The notes under the pieces: generated by a model | Databases searched by the model: none | Told to the model about the DNA's origin: nothing | What the model saw: the letters and a program-made list of their open reading frames with translations, nothing else | IMG/VR virus record: IMGVR_UViG_3300032216_000506 | Coordinates: 1 to 38,480 of that record | DNA: 38,480 nucleotides | Direction: 5' to 3' (one strand) | Source of the DNA: a virus | Taxonomy: Duplodnaviria > Caudoviricetes | Made by a program: the position numbers and the translations under genes | Shown: in pieces, positions 12,440 through 26,535 of the stretch | Layout of the letters: each line of letters opens with the position of its first letter | Numbering within the stretch: the first letter of the stretch is position 1

Positions 12440-12458
12440 AGTTTGACTGCGAGGCCAA

Positions 12459-12498
12459 AGCCCTCGGTTCCCTAACGGGAATCGGGGGCTGTTTTTTT
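12459..12498 (+). terminator. Intrinsic terminator of the late operon
   Basis: 14-bp stem 12459-72/12477-90 followed by a T7 run. Confidence 0.9.
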
Positions 12499-12504
12499 AT
12501 GCCT

Positions 12505-12548
12505 AAAATAAACAAGACCCCTGTAGCTAGTCGGTTACAGGGGTCTTG
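12505..12548 (-). terminator. Intrinsic terminator for the convergent HNH operon
   Basis: caagacccctgta/tacaggggtcttg stem preceded by aaaataaa (U-tract on -). Confidence 0.75.
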
Positions 12549-12571
12549 CTGTCGCATTTTCGGGAATGCGG

Positions 12572-12928
12572 TTAAAAGATACCAGAGTTTGAATCATTGT
12601 TCAAGTGGGTTTTGAGGCGGTGGCAGTTAGCACAGAGCGTCTGTAGGTTAGACGGGTTGTTATCCCATCTGTCTCCGTTGATGTGGTCAACGTCAAGTTG
12701 ACTGATGTGGACTGGCTTGAAGCCACAGTGCTCACAGTAATCTTTCTTGTGGACTGCATACGGGTATAAGAGTTTGTTGTATGCCTTGATGTAGACGGCC
12801 TTGCACTTGTATCTACCGCCAAGGGTTGCTCGTTTAGCATCTCTAAGTTTGATTCTAACTGGACCACAGACTGAGCATATACCAGTCCGGTCCTGCTCGT
12901 TAATCGCAGTAAGGCTGTGCTTCATCAC
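12572..12928 (-). CDS. HNH endonuclease
   Basis: CEHCG...LDVDHING...NNPSNLQTLCANCH. Confidence 0.9.
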   Translation of the reverse strand: MMKHSLTAINEQDRTGICSVCGPVRIKLRDAKRATLGGRYKCKAVYIKAYNKLLYPYAVHKKDYCEHCGFKPVHISQLDVDHINGDRWDNNPSNLQTLCANCHRLKTHLNNDSNSGIF

Positions 12929-13166
12929 GATCTGGTGGGCAGGGTAGTTTGACTAGGTTGCCACAACTGACGCAACTTCCGTCTAGGAAATACCAGACTA
13001 GCTCGTAGTCATCAAAGGATACCATAGCGTTGAAGACCTGCGACCCACACGTACAGACGTGGATAGGACCTAAGCCCCGCAAATCGGCTCCTGCGACCTC
13101 TGGTAACCCTTGTAGCGGGTTCCTATGGCGTAATCTTGGCAGGGTTGGTAGACGGGGACGGCGCAC
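12900..13166 (-). CDS. Zinc-finger protein (CxC...CxxC)
   Basis: AGGAGG RBS before GTG; HVCTCGS...CVSCG. Confidence 0.75.
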   Translation of the reverse strand: MRRPRLPTLPRLRHRNPLQGLPEVAGADLRGLGPIHVCTCGSQVFNAMVSFDDYELVWYFLDGSCVSCGNLVKLPCPPDRDEAQPYCD

Positions 13167-13227
13167 TGTCGGGCCTCCTACCTCTCGGCCCGTGAGGGCC
13201 GCCTACTGTTATTCGCCTACGGCTCAT

Positions 13228-13286
13228 ATTGTAGACACCCTATGCCTAGTATGTGTCTTGCGACACGCCGTGATAAGATGCCCAGT
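13228..13286. promoter_or_regulatory. Divergent promoter pair with GACAC boxes
   Basis: + strand: GACAC 13262-66 and TGaTAAGAT 13271-79, ATG at 13287. - strand: TACAAT at 13233-13228. Inverted GTGTC-N4-GACAC. Confidence 0.65.
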
Positions 13287-13841
13287 ATGACAACACTCGT
13301 AGGAATCCAAGGTAACGACTTCGTAGTTCTTGCGGCTGACTCGCAAATCACGGACGGAGATCAACGTATCATTTCCGTTGAGACACCCAAGATAGTCAAC
13401 ACTGGTAAATACTTACTCGGTCTTACTGGTGACTCACGCCCAGGTGACATCCTTGCCTACGCGTGGAAGCCACCGCTATATCGCGGTGAAGAGCCAACGC
13501 GCTTTATGGGTAGCAAAGTACTGCCTAGTATCTCAGCTGCGTTCAAAGAAAATAACTACGAGATTGATAACAAGGAGATGAACTTCTCATTCCTTATCGC
13601 GTTCAACACAAACCTGTTCTCCATCGGTGGCGACCTATCGTTTAACACATCTGAGCGTGGCCTATTCTCGGCAGGTTCCGGTGGAAATTATGCCCTTGGG
13701 TACTTGTATTCCTTACCACAGTCAAATTACAATAAGCTCGTGACAGCAAGTGTGATAGCAAAGAAGGCAGTTGAGTTGTCAGCCTTACTTGATATAAATA
13801 CGTGTCCACCAGTTCAAGTTATTTCACAGACAAGGATATAA
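13287..13841 (+). CDS. Proteasome-beta/HslV-like N-terminal threonine (Ntn) hydrolase
   Basis: M-TTLVGI...AADSQIT...K34...AGSGG matches the Thr1/Asp17/Lys33/GSG signature. Confidence 0.85.
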   Translation: MTTLVGIQGNDFVVLAADSQITDGDQRIISVETPKIVNTGKYLLGLTGDSRPGDILAYAWKPPLYRGEEPTRFMGSKVLPSISAAFKENNYEIDNKEMNFSFLIAFNTNLFSIGGDLSFNTSERGLFSAGSGGNYALGYLYSLPQSNYNKLVTASVIAKKAVELSALLDINTCPPVQVISQTRI

Positions 13842-19501: not shown

Positions 19502-19674
19502 CATATGAATATGAGTGTCCAGGGTGTGGTGATGTTCGCACGATTGAACGCAAGATGACCGACCCCGAAGAGACATATATCTGCACGCAGTGTGATACAG
19601 AGTTCAGACGCAAGTGGTCTGCTCCAAGCGTAGTCTTTAATGGTTCTGGATTTTATAGCACGGATAATAAATGA
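19498..19674 (+). CDS. FmdB-family zinc-ribbon protein (58 aa)
   Basis: MTYEYECPGCG...CTQC...VVFNGSGFYSTD; ATGA overlaps at both ends. Confidence 0.85.
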   Translation: MTYEYECPGCGDVRTIERKMTDPEETYICTQCDTEFRRKWSAPSVVFNGSGFYSTDNK

Positions 19675-20249
19675 CTGAGTATCCTAATTGGTTTGGCGTT
19701 ACAGCACAGCATAACTTTGAGCAGTTCCTTACTCCACTAGCAGGGCAAGATGACCTTAAGTTCTTGCAGCTTGGTGTATTTACTGGAGATGCCAGCGTGT
19801 GGATAGTTGAGAATATCTTTACTGGTATCTGCTGTTGGCTTATAGATGTAGATACGTGGCAAGGTAGCGATGAACCTGACCACGAGCCTATGAACTTCGA
19901 TGATGTGTACTCCACCTATCTTGCAAAGATAGAGCCATACAAAGATAAGGTTTGCCACTTTAAGTCCACTACTACTTGGCACTTATCAAGCGTGCGCCGT
20001 GAACCCAGTTATGATTTTATTTATATTGACGCAGACCATACAACTGTCGGTGTCATACTTGATGCTGAGTTAGCGTGGCCACAGTTAAAGTCTGGTGGCA
20101 TTATGGCCTTTGATGATTACACTTGGCAGCACGCTAGCGGTGATCCTCGCCTTGCACCGCAGGTTGGTATCGACCTCTTTCTCCACCGCCATCAGAGCGA
20201 CTATGAATTACTGGCTAAAAATAATCAGGTGTGGATTAGAAAGCGCTAA
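19671..20249 (+). CDS. Class I SAM-dependent methyltransferase (Methyltransf_24-like)
   Basis: LQLGVFTG, VDTW, DFIYIDADH and LKSGGIMAFDDY. Confidence 0.85.
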   Translation: MTEYPNWFGVTAQHNFEQFLTPLAGQDDLKFLQLGVFTGDASVWIVENIFTGICCWLIDVDTWQGSDEPDHEPMNFDDVYSTYLAKIEPYKDKVCHFKSTTTWHLSSVRREPSYDFIYIDADHTTVGVILDAELAWPQLKSGGIMAFDDYTWQHASGDPRLAPQVGIDLFLHRHQSDYELLAKNNQVWIRKR

Positions 20250-20310
20250 CCCCCACCGGCGAAAGAGGTAAACTCCGGTGAGGGCTAGTTGTGCTTCGAA
20301 AGGAAGGCGT
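20238..20310 (-). ncRNA. Candidate small RNA with two anti-Shine-Dalgarno-like elements (may double as terminator)
   Basis: Extended -10 at 20323-20315; 14-bp stem fully paired only on -; loop AGUUUACCUCUUUCG; 5' arm CCUUCCUUUCG. Confidence 0.55.
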
Positions 20311-20314
20311 CTAA

Positions 20315-20323
20315 ACTATAGCA
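20315..20323 (-). promoter_or_regulatory. Extended -10 element TGcTATAGT
   Basis: Reverse complement of actatagca; no ORF downstream on this strand. Confidence 0.6.
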
Positions 20324-20624
20324 TACCTTCCTCAGTACCAGTTGTGTCGTCTGTGCCAAGCGAGAGCACGGCACGCAGATTTTCGATAGCGAGCGTCAAG
20401 GTATCTAATGCCGTGTAGTATTTGGATTCTAGGATCGCTACTTCGCTCTCCAAGGAGTTGAGCAATTCCATAAGCCGTGCTTCTTGGTTTGCCCTGAAGA
20501 TTTCTTGGGCGAGCAAAGTGGTCGAAGCGGGATTCAGTGGCCCAAAGGGTGATGAGGCACCCTGTCTCTCGGTTCGTATATCCGAGAGCTTGACTATATT
20601 CTCGAACTGTTCGTCTATTTTCAC
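20316..20624 (-). CDS. Possible overprinted acidic coiled-coil protein
   Basis: 102-aa ORF, GTGA-coupled to the upstream stop with GGAGGAG RBS; lies within the SLT gene in another frame. Confidence 0.45.
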   Translation of the reverse strand: MKIDEQFENIVKLSDIRTERQGASSPFGPLNPASTTLLAQEIFRANQEARLMELLNSLESEVAILESKYYTALDTLTLAIENLRAVLSLGTDDTTGTEEGML

Positions 20625-20766
20625 GCTTCTCCTCCATCGTTGCTTTTGTTTGGGCTGTTATTACTGGCTGAGAAATCAACCCAGCCTTCTCCCTCTCGTA
20701 CTGGTAAAACAGTAGCGCTAGTAGTGCCGTCAATATCAAGCCACTTACGACCTTGTGCTTCGTCAT
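20332..20766 (-). CDS. Membrane-anchored lytic transglycosylase (SLT/Rpf-like)
   Basis: N-terminal TM; CLITLWATES, AYGIAQLL, QILHGIRYLDARY and terminal NWY. Confidence 0.85.
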   Translation of the reverse strand: MTKHKVVSGLILTALLALLFYQYEREKAGLISQPVITAQTKATMEEKRENRRTVREYSQALGYTNRETGCLITLWATESRFDHFARPRNLQGKPRSTAYGIAQLLGERSSDPRIQILHGIRYLDARYRKSACRALAWHRRHNWY

Positions 20767-20908
20767 TCGCCTTCTCCCTCTCCAGTAACTCTGTATAAGT
20801 TTCCGGATATAGTTGTGCTAGTTTGACAAGAGCACGATCTCGCGCCCGTCTGTAGTTTCTTTGGCGTACTGCCATATTCTTTGCAGCCGCCACCCTTCTC
20901 TCGTTCAC
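20621..20908 (-). CDS. Hypothetical basic protein
   Basis: GTGA-coupled start; RNYRRARDRALVKLA helix. Confidence 0.7.
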   Translation of the reverse strand: MNERRVAAAKNMAVRQRNYRRARDRALVKLAQLYPETYTELLEREKANDEAQGRKWLDIDGTTSATVLPVREGEGWVDFSASNNSPNKSNDGGEA

Positions 20909-20988
20909 TCGTTCACCCTCTCCTCTATGCGGATAAGGCAATAGGTTACCAGCATTACTGCGCTGATCCCTAACCAGTATGTAATCAC
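20905..20988 (-). CDS. 27-aa hydrophobic peptide
   Basis: MITYWLGISAVMLVTYCLIRIEERVNE; GTGA overlaps at both ends. Confidence 0.5.
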   Translation of the reverse strand: MITYWLGISAVMLVTYCLIRIEERVNE

Positions 20989-21140
20989 TCTCTCTCCTTC
21001 CAATCTCCAGAATCTAGGTATTTATAGGTGCGCTCGCAGACCGAGCAGTAGCCACATTGGACACACGCAGTACCGGTAAAGGTAATGCAATTAGGGCAGT
21101 AAAGGCTCTCTCCCTCTTGCTTACACTCACCGCAGATCAT
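20985..21140 (-). CDS. Cys-rich microprotein (four CxxC)
   Basis: MICGECK...CPNC...CVQC.YCSVC; ATGA overlap. Confidence 0.7.
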   Translation of the reverse strand: MICGECKQEGESLYCPNCITFTGTACVQCGYCSVCERTYKYLDSGDWKERE

Positions 21141-21379
21141 CGGCTAGCCTCTCTCACGATAGGCGTAATGTCTATCGGTTGCCCTACAAGGTAGGCGTCA
21201 TCGTCATCGGTAGTCCAACCGGAGACAAGGATACGCTTAGCGGTAGGTGAATTGGCTATCCACGCAAGAGCTTCTCTCTCACTATTGCCACCCCACTCAG
21301 CGTTACCGGTGGCGTCTACCACTTCATAGAGCAGCACTAGGTCGCATTGCTTAGGGTGAAAGGCTATGACATTACTCAT
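21137..21379 (-). CDS. Hypothetical early protein
   Basis: AAGGAGGT RBS; 80 aa. Confidence 0.8.
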   Translation of the reverse strand: MSNVIAFHPKQCDLVLLYEVVDATGNAEWGGNSEREALAWIANSPTAKRILVSGWTTDDDDAYLVGQPIDITPIVREASR

Positions 21380-21482
21380 TAGACACCTCCTTAAATACTC
21401 CTTCCCAACAACCCATAGACACCCAATAATCTTTCTGTTCTTGAGTAAAAATTCTTTCTGAACTGTCTGTCCAATTACTCAT
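21372..21482 (-). CDS. Microprotein (36 aa)
   Basis: MSNWTDSSERIF...; overlaps both neighbours. Confidence 0.55.
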   Translation of the reverse strand: MSNWTDSSERIFTQEQKDYWVSMGCWEGVFKEVSNE

Positions 21483-21591
21483 CGTCTCCCTCGCCTTCTT
21501 CTGTATCTTTTACATACTCTAAAGCGTCAGCGTAGTTATCTGCCTCTACTTCATAAGAGTAATCGCCTTCTATAATTTGGTAGTTAGGCAT
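21475..21591 (-). CDS. Acidic microprotein (38 aa)
   Basis: MPNYQIIEGDYSYEVEADNYADAL...; purine-rich RBS. Confidence 0.65.
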   Translation of the reverse strand: MPNYQIIEGDYSYEVEADNYADALEYVKDTEEGEGDDE

Positions 21592-21703
21592 TTTCTTCCT
21601 CTTCTCCCTCTTCTGTGTTAAATACACGCGATAGCGCACTATTGGCACGCATAAGCATAGCGATAGCACGCTCTTGCTTTTCTTTCTCGGTTAGGTCACT
21701 CAT
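21584..21703 (-). CDS. Microprotein (39 aa)
   Basis: MSDLTEKEKQERAIAML...; ATGA overlap. Confidence 0.6.
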   Translation of the reverse strand: MSDLTEKEKQERAIAMLMRANSALSRVFNTEEGEEEENA

Positions 21704-21849
21704 AGGTCTACCCTTTCATATACATCGTTAAGAGTCGCGCCTTGCCACTCTCCACAGCCCTCGCAGACTATGTCACCAATACCTATATTTAGCACCATAT
21801 AATCACCGGTGCCACACTTAATGCAGAAGCCTAGCTTTTCATCACTCAT
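21700..21849 (-). CDS. Zinc-ribbon microprotein (49 aa)
   Basis: FCIKCG...IVCEGCG; ATGA overlaps. Confidence 0.7.
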   Translation of the reverse strand: MSDEKLGFCIKCGTGDYMVLNIGIGDIVCEGCGEWQGATLNDVYERVDL

Positions 21850-22001
21850 AGCTGGCACCCACACTCTTTAACGGGTACTAGGTGATCGCCACAGATAATT
21901 TCGTTATCCCATTCGCAGCAGCTACCGCAGAATTGGTTATTGCACTTATCGCAACCCTCTCCCTCAATCACAATTACATCATCACATTGCTTACATTTCA
22001 T
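21846..22001 (-). CDS. Cys-rich microprotein (51 aa)
   Basis: MKCKQC...CDKC...CGSCC...; GAAAGAGGGAG RBS. Confidence 0.7.
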   Translation of the reverse strand: MKCKQCDDVIVIEGEGCDKCNNQFCGSCCEWDNEIICGDHLVPVKECGCQL

Positions 22002-22037
22002 TCGCTCTCTCCCTCTTTCGTATTCTGCCCTACCGAT

Positions 22038-22092
22038 TAGGTGCAGACTACCGTAGCCTACCGTATAGATAGGCCACGATAGTACGCAACTA
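22038..22092 (-). promoter_or_regulatory. Intergenic long hairpin, copy C
   Basis: ACUAUC-[stem-loop]-GGUAGU core, related to copies A and B. Confidence 0.55.
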
Positions 22093-22221
22093 TTCCGCGT
22101 ATTTAGGATAGCACTCTTCACACAATAGCTGCACGCCATATTGGTGCACGTATCCGGCCTTTAGATCCGTTACCGGATAAAAGTAATCGCACGCTAGGCA
22201 AGCTCTCTTTTCTAATAGCAT
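22090..22221 (-). CDS. Zinc-finger microprotein (43 aa)
   Basis: CLAC...LCEECY; TAATG coupling. Confidence 0.65.
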   Translation of the reverse strand: MLLEKRACLACDYFYPVTDLKAGYVHQYGVQLLCEECYPKYAE

Positions 22222-22367
22222 TACTTTTCACCCTCTCTCATATAAGTACGGAATAACCGCACCGCGTCTCTTTTCGTGTAGCCATAATAGCTGCGGGTAA
22301 TTAGATACCCGTCTCTCCCGCTTGCGTAGATTACCCACGCTCCCTCTCTATTCTTTTCGATATTCAC
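22221..22367 (-). CDS. Microprotein (48 aa)
   Basis: MNIEKNREGAWVI...YYGYTKRDAVRLFR; strong RBS. Confidence 0.7.
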   Translation of the reverse strand: MNIEKNREGAWVIYASGRDGYLITRSYYGYTKRDAVRLFRTYMREGEK

Positions 22368-22387
22368 TTTCTCCCTCTTTCTCTCTT

Positions 22388-22449
22388 ATCCGGCTAGGTA
22401 CCGGCCACCGGCCATCGCCTAACACGATGGCCGATAGTCTCGCACCTAG
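22388..22449 (-). promoter_or_regulatory. Intergenic long hairpin, copy B
   Basis: CUAGGU..GAGACUAUC-GGCCAUCG/CGAUGGCC-GGUGGCCGG.ACCUAG. Confidence 0.7.
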
Positions 22450-22451
22450 AC

Positions 22452-23063
22452 TTAGGCCTTACGCATAGGCATAAGTAGAGCTGCCCATTTAATAGAATCG
22501 TGCGGAATCGTTACCTTAATCGGCTTACGCTCACCGGAGAATTCCATAGTGAGCATAGCGCCGGCCATATTAGAGCAGGGTACCTTAGCGAAATCGGCCA
22601 TAAATGCAGGGTTAAAGGAGATACCCTCAACCGCCACGCTCTCATTAGGGATTAGGTGCTCATAAGGTGGAAAGGTACCGGTGCCTAGTTGCACAGTAAG
22701 GCTAGTGCCACCGATGGCCACGCTTAGGCTATCGCCGGCGCGTGTGAAAGTAATCTCGCGCTGGTACTTCTCGCTCTTAATAGCTGCAAGAATATTCTTT
22801 AGGTCACCTAATCGGATCGCGCTAGGTGAGAGCTCACCTTCTCCCTCTCCCTCTCCCTCTAACACGCCGGCAATTAAGCGATAGCGGTCGCTAGCAGCAG
22901 CGGTAATCGTGCCACCGGTGGCCGATAGATAGACCGCTGCCAGCGCGTCAATAGCTTTCTTACCCTTATCCGCTGCCACGCTAGCGCCGGTGAGTAGGTC
23001 TGCAATATCGCTAGCCTTAGCGGTGAGCGTCTGCAGGGTAGTTTCTTTCATTACTGTATCCAT
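22452..23063 (-). CDS. Truncated DNA polymerase III beta-clamp-like protein
   Basis: ASDRYRL, GTFPPYEHLIP, ISFNP and LLMPMR resemble DnaN motifs; only 203 aa. Confidence 0.8.
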   Translation of the reverse strand: MDTVMKETTLQTLTAKASDIADLLTGASVAADKGKKAIDALAAVYLSATGGTITAAASDRYRLIAGVLEGEGEGEGELSPSAIRLGDLKNILAAIKSEKYQREITFTRAGDSLSVAIGGTSLTVQLGTGTFPPYEHLIPNESVAVEGISFNPAFMADFAKVPCSNMAGAMLTMEFSGERKPIKVTIPHDSIKWAALLMPMRKA

Positions 23064-23088
23064 ATTCTTATTCTCTCTTTTCTATGTA

Positions 23089-23152
23089 ATCCGGCCTAGA
23101 CGCCGGCCACCGCGCAGGGAATCGCTGCCCTGCGCGATAGTCTCCCGTCTAG
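23089..23152 (-). promoter_or_regulatory. Intergenic long hairpin, copy A
   Basis: CUAGACG.GAGACUAUC-GCGCAGGG/CCCUGCGC-GGUGGCCGG-CGUCUAG. Confidence 0.7.
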
Positions 23153-23280
23153 TACTCTCGCTTAGTTATCTTGCAGAATATCCAATAGGCCAGCTCTACA
23201 CCCTGCCATAAGAGATAGCCGGCCACCCCGTAAGCGGTTAGGCATAAGAGCACGCTAAGTAAGTAAAGCAGCTCACTCAT
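23149..23280 (-). CDS. Small membrane protein (43 aa)
   Basis: MSELLYLLSVLLCLTAYGVAGYLLW...; TAATG coupling. Confidence 0.65.
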   Translation of the reverse strand: MSELLYLLSVLLCLTAYGVAGYLLWQGVELAYWIFCKITKREY

Positions 23281-23654
23281 TAGAGCCACCGGTGCGAGAG
23301 CTTGTAGCCGGCTCTATCTTCACCGGCGAAAAGTACGTTTGAGAGGCCGTAAACTAGGTGGAAACCCATATCCATACCGCAACCGTGCACGCGTATCGCG
23401 TCGCTACCGTTGCGAGAGACTAATCTATCGCCGGCAGCTTTCGCAGCACTGTAGTTAATATGGTAAGGCTCACCATTCTTAATATAAATTAGAGAGATAT
23501 CCCGCGACATTCCGGAAGAGCTAACGTGTCGCAGCACTGTATAGATAACCGGCTTAGGGTCACCGGCTAGCAGCTTTCGCAGCGTCTCAATACTTTCGCT
23601 CTTTTCTAGTGCTGCAAGAGCTTTCTTAGATAGTGGCTTTTCTAGTGTAGTCAT
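23280..23654 (-). CDS. Conserved-looking early phage protein
   Basis: 124 aa, GAGGAG RBS; HVSSSGMSR and GCGMDMGFHLVY motifs. Confidence 0.8.
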   Translation of the reverse strand: MTTLEKPLSKKALAALEKSESIETLRKLLAGDPKPVIYTVLRHVSSSGMSRDISLIYIKNGEPYHINYSAAKAAGDRLVSRNGSDAIRVHGCGMDMGFHLVYGLSNVLFAGEDRAGYKLSHRWL

Positions 23655-23825
23655 TTACTTATTCTCCTCTTCATTAAATATCTCGTTACCTACTACATTG
23701 ATAACATTGATTAAGCGATTAGCTAAGTCACCGATACGATAAATAGCGGTGTAATGCGTTAAGTCAATTTCATTTATATCGTGCGCGATAATCTCCAATA
23801 GCTCTTTAGAATTCTGCTTACTCAC
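23655..23825 (-). CDS. First early-operon protein (56 aa)
   Basis: GTG start after GCGAAAGAGAG; MSKQNSKELLEIIAHD...; abuts the next ATG. Confidence 0.65.
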   Translation of the reverse strand: MSKQNSKELLEIIAHDINEIDLTHYTAIYRIGDLANRLINVINVVGNEIFNEEENK

Positions 23826-23873
23826 AATCTTTACTCTCTTTCGCAGCGGGGTTAGGTAGTCGCTACAGGGATA

Positions 23874-23904
23874 ACTATAGGGGTGCCTACCCTATCTATG
23901 TCAA
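23874..23904 (-). promoter_or_regulatory. Early host-sigma promoter TTGACA-N19-TATAGT
   Basis: Perfect -35 and near-consensus -10 directly upstream of the leftward operon; spacer is long. Confidence 0.7.
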
Positions 23905-24300
23905 TTCTATCGGCCACAATTCGCCGGCAATTCTTAGGTGTCGCGCCGGTTATTAGAATCGGATCTAGTACCTATTTAAGAGCCGGCCGGCTATCCGGTG
24001 GCCGGTGGCAGGGTAGGCCGGCGGGTAGCTGCGAGGGTGAGCCGGTTAGCCGGTGGCCTATCGGTTAGCGGGTAGAGCTGCACCGGTTAGAGCTGCTTAT
24101 CGCTAGGCGTTTAATCGGTTAGACATATGGTGAGCGCGTGTCTATGGGTGCCGTTAGTTTAGTATCCGCACCCACCGCCCCCCACTACGCCCCACTTTCG
24201 GCTTGCTTTGCTTTCATCTGCAGGGCATAGGGCTGGCAATTGCCCGCGTGGCGCAAAAGTCAAACCCCCCATAGTTAAACGCGCGCGCGACACGGGGTAT
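23905..24300. other. Non-coding GC-rich region with short repeats; candidate genome end or origin
   Basis: No credible ORF; CGGTTAG x4, dense CCGG, and a G-rich to C-rich switch near 24160. Confidence 0.45.
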
Positions 24301-24372
24301 AGTCCCCAGAAAAATATATTTGCTAAAGTGAAGCCAGATCTGATATAGCATCTGACCAGCACTTATACTGTA

Positions 24373-24443
24373 TGTGTTACACATCACAGCAGTAAATAAC
24401 TGCAAAACGCGAAATGAGTTAATTTTCGCGCCTTATATATAGT
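24373..24443 (+). promoter_or_regulatory. Late promoter region: CRP-like box, inverted repeat and -10 TATAGT
   Basis: TGTGT-N6-TCACA 24373-88; CGCGAAA-N9-TTTCGCG 24408-30; TATAGT 24438-43. Confidence 0.5.
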
Positions 24444-24675
24444 AGGGGAGTAAAGCGGGGAAGTAGTCCGGTTTACGACCCGTACGCTACGGGTGAAACC
24501 CTTCGCGTAGCCCCCTAGGGCGAAGCGAGCTGTACCGCTAAACTATGGGATAGGTCTATCTAAATGTAGATCACTAGTATCTCATTATATGAGAAAATTC
24601 TAGCCCAGTAAAAACTCAACTTCCCTAGTATAAATGAAATCCAATCACGGCCGATTTTACTATTAGGAGCATTAC

Positions 24676-26535
24676 GTGGCAGAGAACTCAGCAGATATAG
24701 CTAAGAGGATTATCCTCGGCTGTGTGGCAGAAGGTATGACCATTGACGCCGCGTGCGGTTCAGCCGGTAAGTCAATGAAGACGTATGAGTACTACCGTCG
24801 CACCGATAAGGTATTTGCAGATAAGGTAGATCGTACAAGGCTCGGACTTAAAGACAAAGCCTTTGCCTCCGGTGATGTTCACGATATTGACTTCGTGACA
24901 TTCCGTGAAAAGTTTCTCCACTCTAAGACTTTCCCACATCAGATAAATCTGATTGATGTGATTGAAGGACGTGAGCCTAGCTGGCTACATCCCAGTATGA
25001 AGTTTGAACCAGGGCTGGCATCTAACCGAGTCCTGATTAACATACCGCCCAACCACGCTAAGTCCATTACGGTCACCGTAGACTACGTAACGTGGAAGGT
25101 AGCCCAGAACCCAAACTTCAGAGTTCTAATTGTATCCCAGACGCAGCAACTAGCCGCCGACTTTCTCTACGCCATCAAGCAAAGACTAACGCATCCTATG
25201 TATGCAGACTTGCAAAGCGCTTATGCTGCTGGTGTAGGGTTTAACTCTAAGACCGCTTCGTGGCAGGCAACCCGTGTCACCTTTGGTGATGAGCTTCGTG
25301 AATCTTCTGAAAAAGATCCAAACATCGAAGCCGTCGGTATTGGCGGTCAGATTTACGGCAAGCGCGCCGATATGATTATCGTTGATGACGCGGTCACACT
25401 TAAGAACGCTAACGAGTTTGAGAAGCAGATACGCTGGCTAACGCAAGACGTACGAAGCCGTCTTAACCCAACCGGTAAGCTGGTAGTCATCGGTACCCGT
25501 GTAGCCTCAGTAGATTTATATAAAGAGCTACGTAACGAAGACCGCTACCCAGGTGGGCAGGTTCCTTGGAAGTATCTGGCGATGCCAGCCCTTCTTGAGA
25601 TAGATGAGAACCCCGACAAGTGGGTTACCTTATGGCCAGCATCCGATGCCCCATTTGATGGGCAAGAAGAAGCCGATAAGAACGAAGACGGTCTATATCC
25701 TAGATGGTCTGGTCGTAACCTATATAACGAGCGCCAAGCGATGGATGCCAGTACGTGGGCGCTAGTTTACCAGCAGCAGGACGTATCTGAGAACGCTGCC
25801 TTTGACCCAGTATGTGTTCGTGGCTCTATTGACGGTATGCGCAAAGCAGGTCGTCTTGAGATGGGCCACCCAGGGCATCCAAAAGATTTAACAGGCTTTA
25901 GCTTTATCTGCGGTATGGACCCAGCGATTGTCGGCGATACTGCCGCAGTCTGCTACGCCATTGATCGTAATACTAGTAAGCGATACATCGCAGATGTTAT
26001 CAAGATTACTAAACCTAGCCCACAGCAAATCCGCGACATCATTATCAACTGGACACAGCTCTACAGTCCGTCCGAGTGGATTATTGAGAAGAACGCATTC
26101 CAGGCATTCTTAACGCAGGATGAAGGCATTCGCCAGTTCCTTGCAGGACGCGGCGTTGTACTGCGTGAGCACCATACTGGTTCTAATAAGTGGGACTCAG
26201 GCTTCGGTGTTGCCTCTATGGCAACGCTCTTTGGTACTAAGCAGGCCGACGGCAAGCACCACCGCGATAATCTGATTCATCTACCTAGTGATCAGACAGA
26301 AAATATCAAGGCTCTAATCGAGCAGTTGATTACGTGGACGCCTACGACTAAAGGCAAGACCGATATCGTGATGGCTCTTTGGTTCTGTGAGATTCGAGCA
26401 CGTGAGATGCTCAACTACGGCCAGTACGCCACGCACCATCTAAAGAATCCTTTCCTATCTCGCGCTGAGCTAGGAAGACGCGTCGTCATCAACATTGATG
26501 AGGCGCTAGCACAGCAGAAAACAACATTCGTTTAG
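24676..26535 (+). CDS. terL: Terminase large subunit with N-terminal HTH extension
   Basis: PPNHAKS Walker A, IIVDD Walker B, IGTR, GMDPA and IEKNAFQ nuclease motifs. Confidence 0.92.
   Translation: MAENSADIAKRIILGCVAEGMTIDAACGSAGKSMKTYEYYRRTDKVFADKVDRTRLGLKDKAFASGDVHDIDFVTFREKFLHSKTFPHQINLIDVIEGREPSWLHPSMKFEPGLASNRVLINIPPNHAKSITVTVDYVTWKVAQNPNFRVLIVSQTQQLAADFLYAIKQRLTHPMYADLQSAYAAGVGFNSKTASWQATRVTFGDELRESSEKDPNIEAVGIGGQIYGKRADMIIVDDAVTLKNANEFEKQIRWLTQDVRSRLNPTGKLVVIGTRVASVDLYKELRNEDRYPGGQVPWKYLAMPALLEIDENPDKWVTLWPASDAPFDGQEEADKNEDGLYPRWSGRNLYNERQAMDASTWALVYQQQDVSENAAFDPVCVRGSIDGMRKAGRLEMGHPGHPKDLTGFSFICGMDPAIVGDTAAVCYAIDRNTSKRYIADVIKITKPSPQQIRDIIINWTQLYSPSEWIIEKNAFQAFLTQDEGIRQFLAGRGVVLREHHTGSNKWDSGFGVASMATLFGTKQADGKHHRDNLIHLPSDQTENIKALIEQLITWTPTTKGKTDIVMALWFCEIRAREMLNYGQYATHHLKNPFLSRAELGRRVVINIDEALAQQKTTFV

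Follow-up and report, generated by a model that had tools for sequence, protein, structure and literature searches.

A candidate small RNA at the end of a phage early gene block with loops complementary to the phage's own early ribosome-binding sites

Introduction

The 6C RNA is built from two hairpins that contain runs of six C. It is encoded on the chromosome of high-GC Gram-positive bacteria, exposes pyrimidine-rich loops and acts on multiple host mRNAs, reportedly in a chaperone-independent manner (PMC6486639). Base-pairing RNAs are also encoded by phages: the C4 RNA of P1 and P7 represses the phage's own genes and controls one operon (c4-icd-ant) for lysogeny (PMC8198154), and sar, OOP and STnc6030 inhibit phage translation, each being encoded opposite one target, with STnc6030 mediating superinfection exclusion (PMC12197685). 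In phage T4, the early mRNAs are inactivated class-wide via a Shine-Dalgarno (SD) motif by RegB, a protein nuclease which needs S1 (PMC1702504). Cluster K mycobacteriophages carry a phage-specific extended ribosome-binding site (RBS), termed start-associated sequence (SAS), at many non-structural genes. This strict 13-mer was described with its function left open, and a single reverse copy in cluster K1 phages was noted by Pope et al. (PMC3203893). The function of SAS is still treated as unverified (PMC12699233), and the passages dealing with SAS in three publications identify no antisense RNA (PMC3203893, PMC12699233, PMC11373665).

Here, we describe a hairpin unit at the far end of the putative early gene block of an IMG/VR phage, which a sequence-only reading had proposed to be a trans-acting RNA directed against early RBSs, and compare it with these systems.

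Results

Genome layout and host

The window (the whole stretch of DNA analysed, 38,480 nucleotides; IMG/VR record IMGVR_UViG_3300032216_000506) represents a complete phage record of ~38 kb with a terminal overlap of 123 nt. The plus strand encodes the structural genes plus an operon with WhiB-, helicase-, primase- and sigma-like genes. The minus strand holds a putative early block (20332..23825) of small genes with long purine-rich RBSs, in which a transglycosylase (SLT) gene comes last; the classes 'early', 'middle' and 'late' are assigned throughout from gene order and content. A putative early promoter (TTGACA, 19 nt, TATAGT; 23874..23904, minus strand) was read from the sequence and was not called by a promoter scan allowing spacers of 16-18 nt. 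Convergent with the early block, a methyltransferase-like gene (19671..20249, plus strand; phrog_2675) forms the end of the replication (middle) operon.

The nearest named terminases are those of Streptomyces cluster-BF phages, which are 42-44% identical. Based on these relatives, the presence of WhiB and the gene content, the host is likely an actinobacterium. No relative of the terminase occurred among the genome contigs searched for the host, and a nucleotide search of GenBank phages returned terminase patches only. A PHROGs scan of 61 ORFs yielded no match to an integrase, repressor or anti-repressor, many small ORFs being unannotated.

Several further features of the window were observed. 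Between the early promoter and the terminase, a GC-rich stretch without coding sequence (23910-24676) contains numerous short inverted repeats and, by analogy with the cluster-BF layout, probably holds the physical genome end or the origin. Another region, non-coding on the plus strand (12440-13240), separates the lysis genes from the middle promoter and contains two strong hairpins; the minus-strand ORFs 12572-12928, which has CxxC motifs, and 12900-13166 are unannotated. The middle operon (plus strand, ~13262-13287) likely begins with a leaderless ATG 7 nt after TGATAAGAT, itself preceded by GACACGCCG, an arrangement shared by 23 of the 25 homologues printed. Here, GACAC may represent a WhiA/WhiB-type site. 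Finally, a 102-codon ORF with a strong SD (20316-20624, minus strand) overlaps the SLT gene in another frame. The alternative same-strand frame over SLT is open for at least 85 codons in 59 of 62 SLT loci, which suggests that this ORF is a real overprinted gene.

A predicted small RNA at the convergent junction

The hairpin unit occupies positions 20238-20323 of the minus strand, and all coordinates previously given for the unit and its pairing sites were correct on re-check. It begins with an extended -10 motif, TGcTATAGT (TGCTATAGT; 20323-20315), for which no -35 was seen and which would place the +1 near 20309; the stop codon of the 102-codon ORF falls within the -10 hexamer. The predicted non-coding RNA of ~70 nt (20238..20309) consists of a 5' single-stranded pyrimidine segment (CGCCUUCCUUUCG; 20297..20309; unpaired in the MFE structure), the 5' arm of a 14-bp stem (20275..20288), a loop of type B (see below; AGUUUACCUCUUUCG, 20260..20274), the 3' arm (20246..20259), which overlaps the stop codon of the methyltransferase-like gene, and a weak U-rich tail (GCUUUCU; 20238..20245) as putative terminator end. 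The loop is the candidate main seed and the 5' segment a second one.

Within the stem, exactly two A-C/C-A mismatches on the plus strand become G-U pairs on the minus strand. Folding of 20238-20310 gave z = -4.17 for the minus strand, with none of 200 shuffles as stable, and z = -1.0 for the plus strand. Rfam 15, which includes C4 and 6C, returned no match at gathering score in the window and none at E<=10 in 20100-20500. The unit was not called by a terminator scan of the window, having a 15-nt loop and a weak tail, nor was 20323-20315 listed by the promoter scan, which requires a -35. The idea of a separate minus-strand RNA unit, with a putative promoter and terminator of its own and a weak U-tail, is supported by comparison with related phages, in which the extended -10 is conserved, the stem covaries and the strands are asymmetric.

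Conservation among related phages

Eighty IMG/VR loci were chosen by SLT protein alone and subjected to a profile search for the unit, which was present in 71 of them (66 at E<1e-3, five at E 0.002-0.025). Among the remaining nine loci, four end <1 kb from the SLT stop, two have a different element and three have none. The unit remains at the convergent junction where other genes intervene after SLT. In an enlarged locus set it was matched in 279 of 355, a number which is no measure of loop conservation as many of these loci were fetched by loop-containing patterns.

The stem was paired in 99.3% of 611 cells, with two-sided changes at 9 of 13 pairs (47 sequences out of 104), and 99 of 104 unique hairpins were more stable on the early strand. 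Loops average 83% pyrimidine, and 5-10 T occur within 14 nt past the stem core in 79/79 homologues. A conserved structure with an exposed seed, as in trans-encoded base-pairing sRNAs, is thus present; the homologue L208 is without the 5' segment.

Using the hairpin only as anchor in protein-selected loci, we obtained 136 matches, which were classed by eye as 85 early-strand junction hairpins, 16 opposite-strand readings of the same hairpins and 35 unrelated hairpins. The motif TGnTAnnnT was located 25-65 nt upstream of the stem in 79/85 junction hairpins versus 0/16 opposite-strand readings (background 3.8%). A by-product of TGA stop codons was considered as its origin and rejected, as such a stop is impossible for 25 of these 79 motifs. 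A conserved -35 was not found, TTGWCW being at -35 in 2 of 98 phages.

In the sister clade (terminase 44-48% identical), model R1 run over 39 sources matched the window and two marginal sites only, with no match at a junction. These phages often share the early motif ACAGGAG, but when 23 of them were scanned, the stretch examined held no loop to match it in the majority. In four distant-clade loci (L490, L509, L494, L482), candidate pyrimidine loops matching the phage's own early starts were observed at other positions. Separately, relatives of the window have conserved stem-loops that lie either within the early leader or between two early genes (L008:3680, L017:1836, L055:1964, L362 and L384).

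Predicted targets in the window

The pairing proposed for the RBS of the first early gene (GCGAAAGAGAGUAAA; 23830..23844, minus strand), 14 pairs with one bulge, was reproduced, as were the loop sites at the early-gene RBSs CGAAAGAGG (22012..22020, minus strand) and GAAAGAGG (22374..22381, minus strand). When the early region was dinucleotide-shuffled 200 times, every shuffle fell short of the match to the first early gene (maximum 12). Of the 709 hairpin loops predicted across the two strands of the window, this one has the highest complementarity to 13 early start regions. A further predicted target is the early-gene RBS UGAAAGGGUAGACC (21705..21718, minus strand; -10.3 kcal/mol). For the 5' segment, the SLT gene start is the best target in the window, with predicted pairing to its RBS at 20767..20781 (minus strand; -15.4 kcal/mol).

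An accessibility-corrected energy of <= -8 kcal/mol was reached at 11/14 early, 2/15 middle and 1/30 late starts of the window, counts in which a few start coordinates are off by one codon and one is wrong. The sequence-only reading had further suggested that early messages are silenced while leaderless ones escape. The phage's own early RBSs are indeed predicted targets, and the sequence at 13287 fits leaderless initiation, but late genes led by an SD are predicted to be poor targets as well. The capsid RBS had also been named as a target. The complementary CGAAAGG is present at 37427-33, but the pairing is unremarkable (7 nt, -6.8 kcal/mol), its predicted energy lying within the range of other late genes, and the capsid RBS was rejected as special target. 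Since any pyrimidine-rich RNA would favour purine-rich early starts, the weight rests on tests of the cognate match between phages.

Loops and early start motifs change together

Among the homologues, two main loop types were distinguished, A (ACCCUUCC) and B (CCUCUUUC, the type of the window). Comparing 103 phages after dereplication (47 of type A, 50 of type B, six others), we found GGAAGGG at 103/698 early starts in A versus 4/684 in B, and conversely GAAAGAGG at 2/698 in A versus 70/684 in B, with either motif at no more than 1/736 middle starts. Extra loop types came from terminase-selected loci. L076 has the loop UUACUUGUCCUUUCA and three starts matching over 11-12 nt, L077 the loop CUCCAUC and three GAUGGAG starts, L361 the loop UACCCCUU and five AAGGGGUA starts, and L221/L228 the loop UAACCCUUUC with GAAAGGGUUA. 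The terminases of L076 and L077 are almost identical, and their loops and early motifs differ. A different host anti-SD as cause of the A/B shift was judged unlikely, as the middle starts are unshifted and L076 and L077 differ.

A formal test was based on 125 dereplicated loci with terminase and middle gene, of which 98 were retained; 23 distant-clade loci and four without usable element (L075, L233, L381, L408) were left out. The boundaries of 15 RNAs were set by hand, gene starts came from a simple SD-weighted caller, and the loop types were assigned by eye, not blind, some of the matches being already apparent at that point. The match of the RNA to its cognate early starts was above expectation in 83/98 phages and in 12/15 loop types (P=0.0009 by Wilcoxon test, P<=0.002 by permutation at the level of types). 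As controls in the 98 phages we used middle starts and early starts read in antisense, and neither gave a cognate signal. On a terminase tree of the 80/98 phages with sufficiently long sequences, the cognate match exceeded the swapped one in 11 of 12 disjoint nearest different-type pairs, with one tie (P=0.001). Matches of >=7 nt end mostly 4-10 nt ahead of the start codon. The 5' segment also displayed a cognate bias (62/96; within type A P=0.0003). Within types, the signal was modest by exact match (A P=0.0002, B P=0.038) and not significant by duplex energy on the loops (P about 0.33) or for the type B terminal loop alone (P=0.18).

No cognate advantage was found for three of the 15 types (H, J and N), and 15/98 phages scored <=0. 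The nearest terminase neighbour of the window, L156, carries a type-H loop and has no 8-mer target in its fetched locus. The type-H loops (UUUUGU(G/U)CAUUU; L156:4225-4272, L397, L401, L402) show complementarity to start codons in an AAAUG context and occur in two distant terminase clades, with an own early target only in L401. Such a loop may have its target in the host or in a foreign phage, or may have been swapped. Apart from types H, J and N and the weak signal within types, the covariation check across related phages that had been put forward shows loop and early RBS changing together, as expected for the seed and targets of a trans-encoded sRNA.

The RNA had also been interpreted as a mimic of the 16S tail, a notion that is not borne out for the loop: CCUCC is present in 0/98 terminal loops, and together with the cognate early matches this indicates that the loop tracks the phage's own early SD motif and not the 16S tail. 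Judged by these sequence comparisons, a more fitting description is that of an antisense RNA directed against extended SD motifs peculiar to each phage. Its 5' segment contains CCUCC in 39/98 phages and equals the 16S tail CCUCCUUUC in 30/98; that of the window, CCUUCCUUUC, is inexact. Many genomes of Actinomycetota carry CACCUCCUUUCU as their 16S tail. The second seed may reach canonical sites too, host ones included.

Parallels in cultured phages

Model R1 found no match in the cultured-phage parallels, which have no sequence homology to the family of the window. The motif CAAGGG(G/A)GAGAG recurs at many early starts of the cluster-BF phages WRightOn and FlowerPower, and a long intergenic hairpin with the loop UGCCUCUCUCCC is located where the block bearing this motif ends (L355:15845-15925 in WRightOn, minus strand; also L523:10040-10120, L648 and L649). 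Its loop is complementary to the early-start motif GGGAGAGAG and came out first of the sense-strand loops when 935 hairpins of WRightOn and 705 of FlowerPower were ranked. The hairpin occurs in 29 Streptomyces phage records, and in Dennebes and Olicious the loop is kept while the stem changes. A second conserved, highly structured intergenic element of ~190 nt was observed in WRightOn and FlowerPower upstream of the last motif-bearing early gene (L355:16376-16570 and L523:10612-10800, minus strand).

In the cluster K phage Adephagia, the reverse SAS sits in the loop of a long stem on the sense strand between genes 92 and 93 (L513:33683-33695; JF704105 58682-58694), with further cases at L514:427, L522:427 and L647:251-277. 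Late transcription of Adephagia begins in the intergenic region that holds this loop (PMC11373665). Near the Adephagia site, the loop was intact in 3/10 records examined, variant in one and absent from six, and it is missing from the homologous stem in 4/8 aligned phages (Keshu, MacnCheese, Yuna, KiSi). The 32-nt loop region was matched in 144 Mycobacterium phage records, and in Miryou the loop is found in a separate hairpin near the left end.

Discussion

We consider it rather probable that the unit gives rise to a trans-acting small RNA which pairs over the phage's own early RBSs and represses early translation as a group. This reading builds on the sequence of the unit, its conservation, the stem covariation, the strand preference, the enrichment of the promoter motif and the cognate match to early, not middle, starts, and it predicts transcription, pairing in vivo, repression and timing. 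The ~70-nt RNA would have an extended -10 promoter to itself, located where the early block ends, and would accumulate. It would be made by a host SigA-type polymerase, to which read-through from the early promoter possibly adds. Loop and 5' segment would then bind 7-14 nt over the early SDs, free of a chaperone as for the 6C RNA loops, and the binding would block 30S entry and expose the message to decay. Middle and late genes, with their short AGGAG-type sites or leaderless starts, would be poor pairing partners, and the outcome may thus be a hand-over from early to middle and late expression. The promoter looks constitutive and would not account for the timing of the switch.

The same hairpin could instead be a cis-acting 3' element that ends the early mRNA, with a loop folding back on starts of the same molecule or acting after 3' UTR cleavage and with the -10 being secondary. 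Such an element would yield the same covariation, and its location on the strand of the early genes and directly downstream of them would suit it, as would the cluster-BF hairpin, which lies between genes with no obvious promoter ahead. However, the extended -10 is kept at a near-fixed distance in 79/85 homologues whatever gene is upstream, 25 of these motifs not being stop codons, and many sites on one molecule are beyond the reach of one cis loop, so that we regard a cis element as unlikely. A bidirectional terminator, with the loop as a functionless relic inverted copy of an early RBS, would account for the convergent junction, the A-rich flank, the T-tail and the stem covariation, and local duplication could produce short loops. 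That the hairpin may simply terminate had been raised as a caveat; the covariation of the loop with early start regions far away from it, in which loop and early motif change jointly in many lineages, makes this explanation very unlikely, and neither the conserved promoter motif, the second pyrimidine segment outside the terminator nor the pyrimidine content of the loops fits it.

Three further explanations concern what the RNA acts on and in which direction. A host-directed 16S-tail mimic that blocks canonical SDs of the host (host shut-off), the phage matches being a by-product, would be in line with the 30 phages whose 5' segment equals CCUCCUUUC and with the type-H loops, which match the AAAUG context in two distant clades and have little or no own target. 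Against it stand the lack of CCUCC in all 98 loops, the tracking of phage-specific motifs and the cognate bias displayed also by the 5' segment, and we hold it to be quite improbable. Pairing with early starts might also activate or stabilise the messages by blocking 5' decay or opening structure, since complementarity alone leaves the sign of regulation undefined and the SD motifs of the early genes do not have the form typical of pairing with the 16S tail; yet the pairing covers the SD itself, at 4-10 nt before the start codon, and pairing across the SD normally excludes the 30S subunit. We would give very little credence to activation. Finally, the functional molecule could be the plus-strand 3' end of the middle operon, its purine loop titrating a protein that binds early RBSs. 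The plus-strand loop reproduces the early motif in sense orientation, but minus-strand folding is favoured in 99/104 hairpins and the promoter motif is found on the minus side only, which makes titration extremely improbable.

For the preferred reading, repression of early genes by a trans-acting RNA, timing alone hardly explains why loop and tag have been re-coded again and again, a pattern suggestive of conflict among relatives that co-infect a cell. As a tentative and somewhat doubtful extension, each actinobacterial phage lineage may use an address code, tagging its early genes with its own extended SD and encoding the matching antisense loop. One RNA would then shut off the early class and silence co-infecting relatives with the same tag, which would drive the formation of immunity-group-like types. 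If true, such a code would explain the cluster K SAS, unexplained since 2011, and as the design appears in tractable cultured phages (Streptomyces BF, mycobacterial K), the role of SAS becomes experimentally testable. Compact orthogonal RNA/RBS pairs for actinobacteria would also be on offer.

In the literature searched, no description of the hairpin RNA was found. Six short motifs had no match in 3/6 supplements of PMC10690425, and the unit may still be among the 10,006 candidates of that study. The unit likely represents a previously unannotated RNA family with trans-acting phage antisense control, and its relation to the described systems is one of partial likeness. With C4 it shares phage-encoded repression of the phage's own genes by base pairing; however, many unrelated early genes share the site here, in contrast to the one operon controlled by C4 (PMC8198154), and in the window neither an Rfam match nor, among the 61 ORFs scanned, a sign of the anti-repressor operon of a temperate phage that marks C4/CI immunity RNAs was found. 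The pyrimidine-rich exposed loops, the multiple mRNA targets and probably the host phylum are reminiscent of 6C, but that RNA is encoded by the chromosome, has runs of C in its loops and acts on the host (PMC6486639), while the unit is phage-borne, has at least 15 loop types, none of them placing it in the 6C family, and lacks an Rfam match. The early tags resemble SAS as phage-specific extended RBSs on many genes, but are looser than the strict 13-mer and without homology to it (PMC3203893, PMC12699233, PMC11373665). Like sar, OOP and STnc6030, the unit would be a phage RNA inhibiting phage translation, but it lies on the same strand as its many targets, up to 3.5 kb away, and not opposite a single one (PMC12197685). 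The proposal comes close to T4 RegB in that early mRNAs would be inactivated class-wide via an SD motif, with the difference that the predicted agent is an RNA and not a protein nuclease (PMC1702504). If true, a single small RNA would govern a whole temporal class of genes in a very common freshwater phage group, as the RNA equivalent of T4 RegB, and its seed-target pair would have re-coded itself repeatedly in evolution.
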